A stretch of 64,000 nucleotides of DNA from Escherichia coli (GTDB lineage: Bacteria; Pseudomonadota; Gammaproteobacteria; Enterobacterales; Enterobacteriaceae). Every line of letters starts with the position of its first letter. Position 1 is the stretch's first letter. The translations under genes and the position numbers were made by a program. The stretch is taken from the NCBI RefSeq assembly GCF_044324785.1, contig NZ_CP172127.1; one strand, 5' to 3'. The notes under the pieces are model-generated. The model was not told the origin of the DNA, searched no databases, and saw only the letters and a list, made by a program, of their open reading frames with translations. This document shows, in pieces, positions 1,487 to 49,931 of the stretch.

Positions 1487-1693
1487 AAAAAAACGCCTGC
1501 TCTTATTACGGAGCAGGCGTTAAAACAGGTCTGTATGACAACAAGTGGGTGCTTCACTCAACGTTGTGTCCATGGTGTCTGATGAGGCATAAGCGACATC
1601 TGTCAGTGGACGATAAGCACCGTAAACGGCTCTGCGTCATTCCGGAGTTTATGAGGCACTAAGGCGAACATAAGAGATGGAATGAGCATCTAC
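1487..1693 (-). ncRNA. glmZ: GlmZ small RNA (about 207 nt) with intrinsic terminator at its 3' end
   Basis: Minus-strand sequence begins GUAGAUGCUCAUUCC and ends in a hairpin (stem 1493-1502 / 1511-1520) plus U7, matching the recalled GlmZ sequence; location between hemY and aslA matches the known locus. Confidence 0.8.
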
Positions 1694-2117
1694 TCGTTTA
1701 TTATGCCACAGAGAACCGGGAAATAACATCCCTTAACACTTGTTATGAGATAATTCTGTAATCCTCTTTGCTTCCTGAGTAATAACTTCCTGAGTGAATA
1801 TTTCTCCTGCGCACGATTCTACACATATATATAATGAATAATAAAAGTCATTCAATTAATAACATATATATTAATTGCCGTTAAAACTAAAAACAGCATC
1901 AATAATCAACGCGATATAACATCACCGCCTTACATATCACCTGCGCCAGAGGTAGGATTGAAAACGCTCTCCTGATTTTCCAATTCATTTTCTGGATAAA
2001 TAAATAATTTATTTTTATCACTATTATTTATGCAATCATCCTGTCAGGGAGAGGGATCTCAATTATCAATGCTTAATTACGTCAACATTTTGACGACATG
2101 AAACCGGAGCATTTTGC

Positions 2118-3773
2118 ATGGAATTTTCGTTTTCACCCAAACTTCTTGTTGTGGCTGTCGCCGCCGCTCTTCCACTCATGGCCAACGCAGCAGATACCCC
2201 GTCAACCGCCACCGCACGCAAAGGCTTTGCCGGATACGATCACCCAAACCAGTATCTGGTTAAACCGGCGACCACTATTGCCGACAACATGATGCCGGTG
2301 ATGCAGCATCCTGCACAAGACAAAGAAACCCAGCAGAAGCTGGCAGAACTTGAGAAAAAAACCGGTAAGAAACCGAACGTGGTTGTTTTCTTGCTGGATG
2401 ATGTGGGCTGGATGGATGTTGGCTTTAACGGCGGCGGCGTGGCGGTGGGTAACCCTACACCAGATATCGACGCCGTTGCCAGCCAGGGGCTGATTTTAAC
2501 TTCGGCGTATTCTCAACCGAGTTCTTCCCCAACCCGCGCCACGATTCTTACCGGACAATACTCCATCCACCACGGCATTCTGATGCCGCCAATGTACGGG
2601 CAACCGGGCGGTCTGCAAGGGTTAACCACTCTGCCGCAGTTGCTGCACGATCAGGGCTACGTCACTCAGGCCATCGGGAAATGGCATATGGGGGAAAACA
2701 AAGAGTCGCAGCCGCAGAACGTTGGCTTTGATGATTTCCGCGGCTTTAACTCGGTATCCGATATGTATACCGAATGGCGTGATGTTCACGTCAACCCGGA
2801 AGTCGCCCTGAGCCCGGATCGTTCTGAATACATCCAAAAACTGCCGTTCAGCAAAGATGACGTTCATGCCGTGCGCGGCGGTGAACAGGAAGCCATTGCC
2901 GACATTACGCCGAAATATATGGAAGACCTGGATCAACGCTGGATGGAATATGGCGTTAAGTTCCTCGACAAGATGGCGAAGAGCGATAAGCCTTTCTTCC
3001 TCTACTACGGCACTCGCGGCTGTCACTTCGATAACTACCCAAATGCGAAATATGCGGGTAGCTCTCCGGCGCGCACCTCTTACGGCGACTGCATGGTGGA
3101 GATGAACGATATCTTCGCCAATCTGTATAAAGCACTGGAGAAAAACTGTCAGCTTGATAACACGCTGATTGTGTTCACCTCTGATAACGGTCCGGAAGCC
3201 GAAGTTCCGCCGCACGGTCGCACACCGTTCCGCGGTGCGAAAGGTTCTACATGGGAAGGCGGCGTTCGTGTGCCAACCTTCGTTTACTGGAAAGGCATGA
3301 TCCAACCGCGTAAATCTGACGGCATTGTCGATCTGGCGGATCTCTTCCCTACGGCGCTGGATCTGGCGGGGCATCCTGGGGCGAAAGTAGCGAATTTAGT
3401 ACCGAAAACCACCTTTATCGATGGTGTGGACCAGACATCTTTCTTCCTGGGAACAAATGGTCAGTCTAACCGTAAGGCCGAGCACTACTTCCTCAACGGT
3501 AAACTTTCTGCTGTGCGTATGGATGAGTTCAAGTATCACGTCCTGATCCAGCAACCGTACGCGTATACCCAGAGCGGGTATCAGGGTGGATTCACCGGCA
3601 CAGTAATGCAAACGGCGGGATCGTCGGTGTTTAACCTGTACACCGATCCGCAGGAAAGCGACTCCATCGGCGTGCGCCATATCCCAATGGGTGTACCGCT
3701 ACAGACCGAAATGCACGCGTATATGGAGATCCTGAAAAAATATCCACCACGCGCGCAGATTAAATCTGATTAA
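2118..3773 (+). CDS. aslA: Arylsulfatase-family protein AslA, 551 aa with signal peptide
   Basis: 551 aa ORF; N-terminal signal-like segment and sulfatase-type motifs (LLDDVGW, sulfatase fold); length matches E. coli AslA. Confidence 0.92.
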
Positions 3774-3809
3774 GCCGGCGCTATCGCTACATCGGGCCAC
3801 ACTGACCTT

Positions 3810-3839
3810 GCCGGATGCGGCGTGAACGCCTTATCCGGC
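3810..3839. repeat. REP (repetitive extragenic palindromic) element
   Basis: GCCGGATGCGGCGTGAACGCCTTATCCGGC matches the E. coli REP consensus; lies between convergent aslA and aslB. Confidence 0.75.
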
Positions 3840-3851
3840 AATCAACCGCAG

Positions 3852-3876
3852 GCGGCCACAAAATGGCCGCTTTTTT
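3852..3876 (+). terminator. Intrinsic terminator after aslA, overlapping the aslB stop
   Basis: GCGGCCA / TGGCCGC stem with CAAAA loop followed by TTTTTT. Confidence 0.6.
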
Positions 3877-5110
3877 ACTTATTCACCACCATCAAATGCG
3901 CCTGCATAATGTCGCTGGCCGGACGACCGTGCGCCAGCAAATCAGCCATTGCTTTAAGATATGGCGGTAGATGGCGGAAATAACGCTGATACCCGGCACA
4001 CAAATAATTCAGCCCGGGTTTGCCGCTGGCATCGAGCATAAAGCGGTGTTTCGGACAGCCTCCCCAGCACGCTTTTAACACGTTGCAACTGCGACACTGC
4101 GCCGGTAACTGCTTAAATTTATCTTCACCAAACACCTGCTGTTGCGGGGAATCGATCATTTCTGCAATTGTTTGCTGGTGCATATTCCCCAGCCGATATT
4201 GCGGATAAACATAGTGATCGCAGGCGTAAACGTCGCCGTTGTGCTCAACAATCACCGAGCGCCCACAGGTTGGCTGATGATGGCAAACCGCACCTGGCGC
4301 ACCGACAAAATTGGCAAACGTCCATTCGATATTCATCACGAAAATCTTGCCGACGTCGCGTTTAATCCAGTGGTCGAATATCGCCACCAGAAATTCACCA
4401 AATTCATCGGGGCGCACCGACCATTCCGTCAGTTCGCCCTGAATATCGCCAGGCGCATGCAATTTCAGTCCATCGCGGGCAGCTGTTTCATCAGCCAGAC
4501 GCTCGACCACCGGAATAAACTGGATGAATTCCACTCCCGCATCGCACAAAAAATCATAAACCTGCAACGGTTGCTGCGCGCTGGTGCGGTTGACGCAGAC
4601 CAGCACGTTATAGTCGACATGATGTTTTTGCAGGAGCGTCAGGGCACGCATCACCAGCTTATGCGTTGGTCTGCCGCCTTTGGTCACGCGATATTGATTG
4701 TGGATCTCAGCCGGACCATCCAGCGATAACCCAACAAGAAAATGATTTTCTGCCAGAAATGCACACCATTCGTCATCAAGCAGAACGCCGTTAGTCTGGA
4801 AGCTGTTACTTATCTTCCTGCCAGCACCATATTTCGCCTGTAGCACCACGGCACGGCGGTAAAAATCCAGCCCGAGTAACGTTGGTTCGCCACCCTGCCA
4901 GGTAAAAGCCACTTCGTTTTGGGTTTCGCTGGCAGCGATATAGTGACGGACATACGCTTCCAGCGTGTCATCGTCCATATGAGTGACTGGCTTTTCGCGG
5001 TAAAGGGATTGTTTTTCGAGATAAAAACAGTAGTCACAGTTCAGATTACAATCGGAACCGCTCGGTTTCGCCATCACATGAAAAGCACGCGTTGGAACCT
5101 GTTGCAGCAT
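3875..5110 (-). CDS. aslB: Anaerobic sulfatase-maturating enzyme homolog AslB (radical SAM), 411 aa
   Basis: ORF with CxxxCxxC radical-SAM motif (CNLNCDYC). Start placed at ATG 5108-5110 (MLQQVPTRAF...) to match the recalled 411 aa; the ORF track start at 5140 is 10 codons longer. Confidence 0.88.
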   Translation of the reverse strand: MLQQVPTRAFHVMAKPSGSDCNLNCDYCFYLEKQSLYREKPVTHMDDDTLEAYVRHYIAASETQNEVAFTWQGGEPTLLGLDFYRRAVVLQAKYGAGRKISNSFQTNGVLLDDEWCAFLAENHFLVGLSLDGPAEIHNQYRVTKGGRPTHKLVMRALTLLQKHHVDYNVLVCVNRTSAQQPLQVYDFLCDAGVEFIQFIPVVERLADETAARDGLKLHAPGDIQGELTEWSVRPDEFGEFLVAIFDHWIKRDVGKIFVMNIEWTFANFVGAPGAVCHHQPTCGRSVIVEHNGDVYACDHYVYPQYRLGNMHQQTIAEMIDSPQQQVFGEDKFKQLPAQCRSCNVLKACWGGCPKHRFMLDASGKPGLNYLCAGYQRYFRHLPPYLKAMADLLAHGRPASDIMQAHLMVVNK

Positions 5111-46569: not shown

Positions 46570-47997
46570 ATGAGCGATAAAAAGAAGCGCAGTATGGCGG
46601 GTTTGCCGTGGATCGCGGCGATGGCCTTCTTCATGCAGGCACTTGATGCCACTATTCTGAATACCGCCTTACCCGCAATCGCTCATAGCCTTAATCGTTC
46701 TCCTCTCGCGATGCAATCAGCCATCATCAGTTATACGCTGACGGTGGCGATGCTTATTCCGGTAAGCGGATGGCTAGCCGATCGCTTCGGTACGCGTCGC
46801 ATTTTTACCCTTGCCGTGAGTCTGTTCACATTGGGTTCTCTGGCCTGCGCACTTTCTAATTCGCTACCACAGCTGGTTGTCTTCCGGGTTATTCAGGGGA
46901 TAGGCGGCGCAATGATGATGCCTGTTGCTCGGCTGGCCTTACTGCGCGCTTATCCTCGTAATGAACTTCTTCCAGTATTGAATTTTGTCGCCATGCCGGG
47001 TCTGGTGGGGCCAATTTTAGGCCCCGTTCTTGGCGGCGTGCTGGTCACCTGGGCAACCTGGCACTGGATATTTTTAATCAATATCCCCATAGGTATTGCG
47101 GGCCTTCTTTACGCGCGCAAACATATGCCCAATTTCACCACCGCACGACGCAGATTCGATATCACTGGCTTTTTGCTGTTTGGCCTCAGCCTTGTTCTCT
47201 TCTCAAGCGGAATAGAGCTATTCGGGGAAAAGATTGTCGCCAGCTGGATTGCCTTGACGGTAATTGTCACCAGCATCGGGTTACTGCTTCTCTATATTCT
47301 CCATGCACGACGCACGCCAAACCCATTAATTTCATTAGATTTATTTAAAACCCGCACTTTCTCGATCGGTATCGTAGGCAATATTGCAACCCGTCTGGGG
47401 ACCGGCTGTGTACCGTTCCTTATGCCATTGATGTTACAGGTAGGATTTGGTTATCAGGCGTTTATTGCCGGCTGTATGATGGCACCGACAGCGTTAGGTT
47501 CCATTATTGCAAAATCGATGGTTACCCAAGTCTTACGTCGTCTGGGCTATCGCCATACGTTAGTGGGGATCACGGTGATTATTGGGCTAATGATCGCTCA
47601 GTTCTCTTTGCAATCACCAGCAATGGCGATATGGATGCTGATCTTGCCGTTGTTTATATTAGGGATGGCTATGTCGACGCAATTTACCGCAATGAATACC
47701 ATCACACTTGCCGATCTGACCGATGACAACGCCAGCAGCGGTAACAGTGTTCTGGCGGTCACGCAGCAACTGTCTATCAGTTTAGGCGTTGCTGTAAGTG
47801 CGGCCGTCCTTCGCGTTTATGAAGGGATGGAAGGCACAACGACTGTCGAACAATTCCACTATACGTTTATCACGATGGGCATTATTACTGTTGCTTCAGC
47901 AGCAATGTTCATGCTTCTGAAAACAACCGATGGTAATAATTTGATCAAAAGACAGCGTAAATCTAAGCCGAACCGCGTTCCATCAGAATCGGAGTAA
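46570..47997 (+). CDS. hsrA: MFS-family efflux transporter HsrA (YieO), 475 aa
   Basis: 475 aa 14-TMS-type MFS ORF. Confidence 0.9.
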
Positions 47998-48955
47998 GTT
48001 GTAATCGTTGTTGCTGAAGGGTCGGTTGGGTTATCCGATGGATGAGTACATCAATCGCCAGCTCCCCTAGTTCATCTTTCGGTTGGTGGATAGTGGTTAA
48101 TGGTGGCGTCATAAAGCTTGCCAGTTCGATATCGTCATAGCCAATCACCGCGATATCCTGCGGAACTTGTAACTCTGCCTGATACAGCGCCTGGTAAACG
48201 CCAACAGCCATAGCGTCATTTCCGGTAAAGACGGCCTGAGGACGCAGCGGATGTAATAACAGTTGGCGCATAGCGTCAAACCCGCCGTTAAATTCAAAAT
48301 CACCAGTGACTTCATAGCCATCAGGAATGTTGAGACCCGCACGTTTCATCGCCGCCCGATAACCTTCCAACCGCAGGCGTGCCGGAGTTTTATCCAGCGG
48401 GCCGGTAATACAGGCGATACGGGTATGACCTTTATCGATCAGATATTGCGTTGCTAAGTCTCCGCCCAGCAACGAGTTATCCTGTATAAGATCGCTGTCG
48501 CCATCGAACGGAGCCCAGTCCATCATCACAGTAGGCACTGTCGGATAACGTTGCATGATTTCACGCGAAGGTTGATGCGTTTCGGTGCACAGTAACAGCA
48601 AGCCATCAACGCGTTTTTGCATCAGCGTTTCCAGATTGCGATTCATCCGCTGTTCATCGCCTTCGGTATTGCAAAGGACGAGACTATAACCGCGTTCGAA
48701 GCAGCTGCGTTCAACGCCACGCACCAGTTCTGAATAGAAAGGATTGGTACTGGCAGTGATCAACATGCCAATGGTATGTGTTTGATTGAGTTTGAGGCTA
48801 CGCGCCAGGGCTGATGGCGCGTAATTGAGTTCTTTAATCGCCGCTTCAACTTTGGCGGTAATCGCTTCACTGACGAAGCGATCTTTATTGATAACGTGAG
48901 AAACTGTTGAGGTAGAAACGCCCGCCAGGCGGGCAACATCTTTCATTGTAGCCAA
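47963..48955 (-). CDS. rbsR: Ribose operon repressor RbsR (LacI family), 330 aa
   Basis: N-terminal [23 protein letters not shown] helix-turn-helix; 3' end overlaps the hsrA 3' end by 35 bp. Confidence 0.93.
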
Positions 48956-48958
48956 GCG

Positions 48959-49888
48959 TCACCTCTGCCTGTCTAAAAATGCGTCGATCTCTTCACGCCA
49001 CGGTACGGAAGGTTGTGCGCCTTTACGTGTTACGGCAATCGCAGCGGCAGCATGGGCAAACCGAATCGCCTCTGGCAATGGTTTTTCTTCCAGCAACGCC
49101 GTGATTAACGCGCCGTTAAAGGTATCTCCGGCAGCAATGGTATCGACAGCCTGCACCCGGAATCCAGGAACGCGCTGACCTTCACCATTCACGCTAGCCC
49201 ATACACCACGACTTCCTAAAGTAATCAGTACAGTACGGATACCTTTTTCATGCAGTACCTGCGCCGCCTTCGCTGCATCTTCATCATTTTCAACACGAAT
49301 ACCGGTGAGCTTTTCTGCTTCCGTTTCGTTTGGCGTAATAATGTCCACCAGCGCCAGCAGTTCGTCAGGAAGTTCGCGAGCCGGAGCCGGGTTAAGCGCA
49401 ACGATAGTCTTATTTTGATGGGCGATTTTCGCCGCTGCCTTCACACTTTCGAGTGGTGATTCCAGCTGCATTAATAATGCTGACGCGTTGGCAATACGCT
49501 CACGTTGCGCTTCCACCAGCGCCGGGGAAAGGGCAGCATTAGCGCCGGCATGAATACCGATGACATTCTCACCTTCGCCATTAACAAAAATCAGCGCCAC
49601 ACCTGTTGATTCGCCTTTGATCACGCTGACCGGAGAAATATCAATGTTATCAGTGGCGAGCTGCTGGCGAACGCTCTCACCAATACTGTCATCACCCGTA
49701 CAGGCAATAAACGCGATATTCGCACCGCTACGCCCAGCAGCCACAGCCTGATTAGCGCCTTTGCCGCCAAATGCAACCTGATAGTGGTTACCGGTTACGG
49801 TTTCGCCTGGAGTAGGAAAAGATTGAAGATTAAGAATGTGGTCAGCATTAATGCTGCCAAGAACAACGAGGCTGCCTGCGTTTTGCAT
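48959..49888 (-). CDS. rbsK: Ribokinase, 309 aa
   Basis: Start at MQNAGSLVVLGSINADHIL...; the ORF track adds 9 codons. Confidence 0.92.
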   Translation of the reverse strand: MQNAGSLVVLGSINADHILNLQSFPTPGETVTGNHYQVAFGGKGANQAVAAGRSGANIAFIACTGDDSIGESVRQQLATDNIDISPVSVIKGESTGVALIFVNGEGENVIGIHAGANAALSPALVEAQRERIANASALLMQLESPLESVKAAAKIAHQNKTIVALNPAPARELPDELLALVDIITPNETEAEKLTGIRVENDEDAAKAAQVLHEKGIRTVLITLGSRGVWASVNGEGQRVPGFRVQAVDTIAAGDTFNGALITALLEEKPLPEAIRFAHAAAAIAVTRKGAQPSVPWREEIDAFLDRQR

Positions 49889-49908
49889 ATTCGGGATGTC
49901 CATAAAAT

Positions 49909-49931
49909 GCGCCACCGTGTTAGGGTGGCGC
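49909..49931 (-). terminator. Strong hairpin in the rbsB 3' UTR / rbsB-rbsK spacer
   Basis: GCGCCACC / GGTGGCGC stem with 7-nt loop followed on the minus strand by AUUUUAU. Confidence 0.45.

Follow-up and report, generated by a model that had tools for sequence, protein, structure and literature searches.

Convergent genes that share their 3' codons reportedly come to do so when a stop codon is lost or a frameshift occurs at the 3' end, an account attributed to Rogozin et al. in 2002. Excludons, said to have been described by Sesto et al. in 2013, are another system against which such a pair can be set.

In the analysis of Lillo and Krakauer (2007; PMC2174442), a stop-mutation model fits convergent overlaps, of which E. 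coli was found to have 58 pairs under the older annotation of that year. The modal convergent overlap in that study is the 4-nt arrangement in which the two stop codons interlock as CTAA or TTAA, the commonest phase at 5 nt or more is (123:132), accounting for 49% of convergent overlaps, and only 20% of genes in convergent overlaps have a predicted intrinsic terminator. Pallejà et al. (2008; PMC2478687) give 3' extension by frameshift or stop mutation as the usual origin. For the transcripts of such pairs, two modes of termination are relevant, both as cited in PMC7815308: bidirectional intrinsic terminators between convergent genes (Ju et al. 2019), and Rho termination of untranslated 3' RNA together with suppression of antisense transcription (Peters et al. 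2012).

Here we describe the junction of hsrA and rbsR in a window of 64,000 nucleotides from Escherichia coli (contig NZ_CP172127.1 of assembly GCF_044324785.1), whose numbering is used throughout unless another is named. The overlap between these genes is already known, since it is annotated in RefSeq E. coli genomes and named in a published excludon list, and the phase history across genera presented here is a small addition to it.

Results

In this window, hsrA (yieO; named 'mdtD' by PGAP) occupies 46570..47997 on the plus strand and encodes a 475-aa MFS transporter, as supported by its open reading frame (ORF), Pfam and the RefSeq annotation, and rbsR occupies 47963..48955 on the minus strand and encodes the 330-aa LacI-family ribose operon repressor, as supported by its ORF, Pfam and the PDB. 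The original prediction that the two 3' coding ends occupy the same DNA at 47963..47997 was borne out, with both the ORFs and the RefSeq annotation giving a convergent overlap of exactly 35 nt. The two strands of this stretch carry RbsR T321–A330 plus stop and HsrA K466–E475 plus stop, which for each gene amounts to the last 10 codons, the stop codon and 2 nt of the codon before. The phase is (123:132), such that rbsR codon position 1 faces hsrA position 1, position 2 faces 3 and position 3 faces 2. The hsrA stop codon TAA (47995..47997, plus strand) straddles two rbsR codons of the other strand, pairing with the final TT of Leu320 (CTT) and the initial A of Thr321 (ACT), and the rbsR stop codon TAG lies at 47963..47965 on the minus strand, as seen in the ORF and in aligned relatives. 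In two RefSeq E. coli genomes, PGAP places the genes at relative coordinates 1671..3098 (plus) and 3064..4056 (minus), matching the ORFs of the window, and the segment 47400–48600 is matched, with coverage of at least 80% and identity of at least 95%, by 5,357 RefSeq records, the best of them at 99.6%.

Each of the two stop codons is the first in-frame stop and needs no support from homology; the ends are, in addition, conserved in 31 related loci. An earlier end for one of the two proteins, which had been named as the outcome that would overturn the overlap, applies to orthologues only, HsrA being ~10–12 residues shorter in Klebsiella, Kluyvera and similar genera; it does not apply to E. coli, in which the stop is unambiguous. 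These shorter orthologues, along with the finding of Pallejà et al. (PMC2478687) that mis-extended 3' ends account for many long convergent overlaps, are what would speak for an artefact of annotation or sequencing in which one protein in reality ends sooner. However, the stop codons here are not predictions, as the same sequence is present in thousands of complete E. coli genomes and at 31 loci of several genera; RbsR in PDB entries 9ny7/9ny8 has the same 330-residue end; and 35 nt is below the 60-nt range examined in PMC2478687. With unambiguous, conserved stops and an identical RbsR end in the PDB, the misannotation reading is effectively refuted, and we give it a close to negligible probability. 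For annotation, both stop codons are correct and neither hsrA nor rbsR should be trimmed.

Both partners are genuine protein-coding genes, as indicated by domain matches, a solved RbsR structure and conservation in ~75 loci. RbsR matches the Pfam families LacI at residues 3–48 and Peripla_BP_3 at residues 170–329 of 330; the PDB entries 9ny7/9ny8 ('Ribose operon repressor', 330 residues) show one difference over RbsR residues 2–330 and the same C-terminus, and PurR structures align up to RbsR residue 329. Because the Peripla_BP_3, 9ny7/9ny8 and PurR alignments all reach the C-terminus, the rbsR part of the overlap encodes a portion of the conserved fold. On the opposite strand, the Pfam MFS_1 match of HsrA comprises residues 17–406 of 475 only, leaving the tail outside the MFS domain, and what the overlap specifies is the end of the basic tail beyond the final hydrophobic segment; from the positive-inside rule, this tail would be cytoplasmic.

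We compared this junction with those of relatives through an RbsR scan of one genome per species, which listed the 80 closest loci, all of them from Enterobacteriaceae. Junctions were measured by ORF-based extraction; tblastn was unsuitable, as it aligns through stop codons and produced spurious overlaps of 79 and 124 nt. Wherever a listed locus has both genes, rbsR and hsrA face each other tail to tail with practically no spacer, and the extremes among the 80 listed loci are a gap of 2 nt and an overlap of 53 nt. The 35-nt overlap of the window occurs in 28 listed loci from Escherichia, Salmonella, Citrobacter, Enterobacter, Leclercia and Intestinirhabdus, and a 53-nt overlap in 3 from Lelliottia, Huaxiibacter and relatives. 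Equally frequent is the 4-nt overlap (28 listed loci; Klebsiella, Raoultella, Trabulsiella, Pluralibacter, Buttiauxella, Franconibacter and others), followed by the 2-nt gap (10 listed loci; Kluyvera, Atlantibacter and Phytobacter), a 9-nt overlap (5 listed loci; Kosakonia and relatives) and a 24-nt overlap in a single listed Kosakonia locus.

RbsR ends in RGS[A/V] at residue 330 in nearly all listed loci. HsrA is conserved up to DGRNLIKERH(K); the 4-nt and gap classes have a stop at this point, whereas the 35-nt class goes on with KPxxxPSEQE. Its length is accordingly 463–466 aa in the 4-nt and gap classes versus 475–477 aa in the 35-nt class, with 2–8 residues after the N-L-I motif in the former and 16–18 in the latter. 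The codons of this variable C-terminal tail lie at 47947..47994 (plus strand) in the window, the last ~10 of them being the clade-specific extension.

Three of the loci inspected carry changes in the genes themselves. In Escherichia sp. MOD1-EC7003, a ~1,147-nt internal deletion (locus 3959–4242; the equivalent of window 46752–47898 is missing) leaves an hsrA remnant of ~60 N-terminal and 33 C-terminal codons beside an intact rbsR, junction and yieP, and hsrA therefore seems dispensable in that lineage. Enterobacteriaceae bacterium RIT714 (locus 3001–4728) is without hsrA; there, yieP converges on a 336-aa rbsR across a gap of ~15 nt. In E. coli DH5alpha (NZ_CP025520.1, locus 3064–4055), RefSeq calls rbsR a frameshifted pseudogene of 992 rather than 993 nt.

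The junction classes are distinguished by a simple phase rule. With the spacer defined as the number of bases from the rbsR stop to the Ile codon of the conserved N-L-I motif of HsrA, the 35-nt class has spacers of 16 or 22 nt (1 mod 3), the 4-nt (interlocked stops) and 2-nt-gap classes have spacers of 5, 11, 17 or 23 nt (2 mod 3), and the 9- and 24-nt classes have spacers of 15 or 18 nt (0 mod 3); the rule is valid in every representative tail tested. In the 2 mod 3 phase, the hsrA and rbsR stops interlock as CTAA or TTAA. In the 1 mod 3 phase, the interlocking stop is out of frame, and hsrA reads on to the TAA antisense to Leu320–Thr321. Read in its three plus-strand frames, the E. coli sequence ends at a 35-nt overlap, a 42-nt overlap or a 2-nt gap. 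Without the rbsR stop, the overlap should grow to 53 nt, as it does in Lelliottia/Huaxiibacter, where TAG has changed to TCG and RbsR has gained 6 aa. The frame of hsrA antisense to rbsR contains 25 stops in 330 codons; because these antisense stops are ~13 codons apart on average, a run-on of ~10 codons has the length expected of a chance extension.

To place these states on a phylogeny, we used a neighbour-joining tree of RbsR and HsrA trimmed of their C-terminal tails, midpoint-rooted and restricted to Enterobacteriaceae. In this tail-free tree, the 35/53-nt class is monophyletic, with 31/31 tips under one node and no other class inside, and the 4-nt and gap states fill all other lineages. 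Parsimony on this gene tree, with midpoint rooting and sampling confined to the family, points to 4 nt as the ancestral overlap and 35 nt as the derived one. We propose that, in the common ancestor of Escherichia, Salmonella, Citrobacter and Enterobacter, a one-base change in the tail segment of hsrA would have shortened the spacer from 17 to 16 nt. This change would have shifted hsrA out of the interlocked-stop phase (CTAA/TTAA, 4-nt overlap), and in its new phase HsrA would have gained ~10 codons, up to the first antisense stop at rbsR Leu320–Thr321.

The extra HsrA residues behave as a tolerated passenger, and it is the RbsR C-terminus, as part of a LacI-family fold, that is under constraint. 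Variation inside the overlap shows this asymmetry. The 31 loci with a 35- or 53-nt overlap show 21 types of variant, 13 synonymous and 8 non-synonymous in the rbsR frame, and the same 21 types comprise 5 synonymous and 16 non-synonymous in the hsrA frame. The variation is concentrated at rbsR wobble sites, and the HsrA extension therefore follows the silent changes of rbsR; it is because its sequence tracks these synonymous sites that we regard the extension as a passenger.

The extension (KPxxxPSEQE) might instead be functional itself, for example in regulation or stability of the transporter, with the overlap kept since the tail is needed. Its retention together with the stop in Escherichia, Salmonella, Citrobacter, Enterobacter and Leclercia would fit this, as would the fairly constant terminal P-S-E-x-E and the invariant stop. 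However, the constant residues are those opposite the constrained RbsR codons T-P-V/I-L-M, 16 of the 21 variant types in the overlap are non-synonymous for hsrA, functional-looking HsrA in other genera ends 10–12 residues sooner, and the tail is outside the MFS domain. We consider a function of the tail highly improbable. The hsrA stop itself is harder to square with a purely passive tail, being invariant in 31/31 loci of the 35/53-nt class despite including a four-fold degenerate rbsR site, and other four-fold degenerate rbsR sites in the overlap vary freely; its loss would add 16 residues and produce an 83-nt overlap. From these alignments, the invariance may reflect mild selection on the HsrA end point, or merely shared ancestry.

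The passenger status of the HsrA extension concerns the coding sequences, and we also analysed how the two transcripts end. The original prediction held that there is no room between hsrA and rbsR for independent terminators, and this proved to be the case: the coding ends are shared, and there is no terminator-like hairpin at or near the junction. A consensus scan of 2.8 kb found no intrinsic terminator within several hundred nt of the junction; the 4 terminator-like sites that it returned, compared with 3.0 expected from shuffles, are all distant and none is on the minus strand. Stretches of 181 nt around the junction fold no better than shuffles (z −0.62 on the plus strand, −0.20 on the minus strand), and Rfam gave no match at an E-value of 1 or below over 47300..48700. 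A bidirectional intrinsic terminator at the junction was considered and ruled out, as there is no GC-rich hairpin with A- and U-tracts. With no space for a terminator between the genes, both mRNAs must run into the partner gene as antisense RNA.

Published 3'-end data for MG1655, including DirectRNA-seq with and without bicyclomycin (Adams et al. 2021; PMC7815308, supplementary file 2), were transferred to the window by g = 3987182 − w, where g is the MG1655 and w the window position, a mapping verified by one published context sequence. On the hsrA strand, these data place a Rho termination region, labelled 'antisense rbsR', at MG1655 3938923 (−), corresponding to window ~48259 (plus strand), 262 nt past the hsrA stop. 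Its Rho score is 2.78 (p 7.6e-6), at a coarse resolution of 800-nt windows and with low reads; upstream/downstream counts are 102/32 untreated and 164/143 with bicyclomycin (PMC7815308). Past the hsrA stop, the C/G ratio starts at 0.73–0.77 in the first 160 nt and reaches 1.35 in the window +121..+200 and 1.86 in +281..+360, which would amount to a modest C enrichment at best, and similar C-rich, G-poor windows lie past the rbsR stop. Further upstream, a Rho region inside hsrA (MG1655 3940281, window 46901, plus strand; ~330 nt from the hsrA start, score 2.16) hints that much yieP–hsrA transcription ends before the junction.

On the rbsR strand, the data of Adams et al. (PMC7815308) contain no 3' end downstream of the rbsR stop, and the supplements of SMRT-Cappable-seq mention neither rbsR nor hsrA. 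What these data do contain (PMC7815308) is a Rho termination region inside rbsR, at the start of the gene (MG1655 3938387 (+), window 48795, minus strand; score 3.77), and a Term-seq 3' end, also inside rbsR (MG1655 3938325 (+), window 48857, minus strand). Within the 5' part of rbsR, 48861–48882 forms a perfect 8-bp palindromic hairpin, ATCGCTTC-N6-GAAGCGAT, which is terminator-like on the plus (hsrA) strand, where CTTTATTGAT follows. The hairpin coincides with the rbsR-strand Term-seq 3' end at MG1655 3938325 and lies beside the Rho region at MG1655 3938387; taken together, hairpin, 3' end and Rho region in the 5' part of rbsR suggest premature termination inside the gene.

A very strong Term-seq 3' end lies between rbsB and rbsK (MG1655 3937278 (+), window 49904, minus strand), with 84,576 and 28,585 reads in two conditions. 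It is preceded by a GC-rich hairpin and a U-run and is an intra-operon terminator, so that less transcription enters rbsK–rbsR and hence reaches the junction. The rbsK ORF called mechanically at 48959–49915 (minus strand) has a GTG start and 318 aa, compared with 309 aa (930 nt) in RefSeq; the longer version is probably an upstream read-through to an earlier start codon.

We envisage that ribosomes leave at each stop and that the untranslated mRNA would continue antisense to the partner until Rho acts. On the hsrA strand, where the termination region is published, Rho would thus end transcription a few hundred nt inside rbsR, and the 3' end of the rbsR mRNA is probably Rho-dependent too.

Transcript overlap of hsrA and rbsR is documented, as ExcludonFinder (PMC12288877, Table 1) includes rbsR–hsrA in its 165 convergent excludons, those detected in 50% or more of 58 MG1655 transcriptomes, and the Rho region inside rbsR (PMC7815308) agrees with this. 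The original prediction had also raised possible transcriptional interference between the two genes, which stays a putative effect. Reads of the untreated culture are low on both strands, at 102/32 and 173/72 per 800 nt (PMC7815308); because of these low reads, and because upstream terminators limit rbs transcription at the junction, strong interference seems unlikely.

A more far-reaching possibility is a functional excludon, in which converging transcription is selected and yieP–hsrA and rbsK–rbsR antagonise each other through polymerase collision or RNase III cleavage of the duplex. Such a device would agree with the presence of the pair in the MG1655 list of 165 convergent excludons (PMC12288877), with transcription on the hsrA strand that, by the point at which Rho acts, has covered at least ~260 nt antisense to rbsR, and with a tail-to-tail abutment that is kept in all sampled genera. 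However, the listing adds nothing on regulation, as its coverage criterion calls any two expressed genes with overlapping ends; collisions should be rare at the low read numbers of both strands; and the rbsB–rbsK terminator (84,576 reads, MG1655 3937278), along with the Rho region at the start of rbsR, limits rbs transcription to the junction. In addition, hsrA is deleted or absent beside an intact rbsR in two lineages, and nothing that we found connects HsrA functionally with ribose regulation. We therefore regard a functional excludon as unlikely. The family-wide arrangement of rbsR and hsrA with zero spacer could nonetheless reflect something beyond inertia. The strongest form of this idea, in which the zero-spacer junction and the invariant hsrA stop are both selected and converging transcription couples the ribose repressor to yieP–hsrA as a true regulatory excludon, we consider very unlikely; were the excludon reading true, the pair would be one more case on the list of 165 in E. 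coli.

Discussion

The rbsR–hsrA junction is very probably an ordinary fixed tail-to-tail overlap that arose by 3' extension of hsrA, rather than a dedicated regulatory device. As such it is a clean case of how convergent overlaps originate, a one-base phase change setting whether 4, 9 or 35 nt are shared, and it illustrates how a younger frame evolves as the passenger of an older one. Beyond bookkeeping, the overlap is of little importance.

With regard to the ends of the transcripts, the locus resembles Rho-dependent 3' termination in that coverage past the stop drops in a bicyclomycin-sensitive manner, in antisense RNA and near candidate C-rich, G-poor stretches; it differs in that this is seen on the hsrA strand only, at coarse resolution and low coverage. 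With bidirectional intrinsic terminators it shares the setting, a convergent pair that needs termination both ways in the same DNA. In contrast to such terminators, termination on the hsrA strand responds to Rho inhibition and occurs far inside rbsR, and there is no GC-rich hairpin.

As in excludons, the transcripts of the convergent neighbours overlap, and the pair is named in the 'excludome' of E. coli MG1655 (PMC12288877). The defining property of excludons, however, is mutually exclusive expression, whereas rbsR–hsrA is known by its transcript overlap alone, which follows trivially from shared ends.

The closest likeness is to convergent pairs formed by 3' extension. As in those pairs, the 3' codons of two bona fide genes overlap on opposite strands, hsrA extends beyond its orthologues up to the first in-frame stop antisense to rbsR, the phase is (123:132), and sister lineages have the modal 4-nt form with CTAA or TTAA. 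The locus differs in nothing essential, only in that the change in hsrA appears to have been a one-base phase shift of the tail and not a point mutation of the stop. The rbsR–hsrA pair is a textbook example of convergent genes that overlap through stop loss or frameshift.
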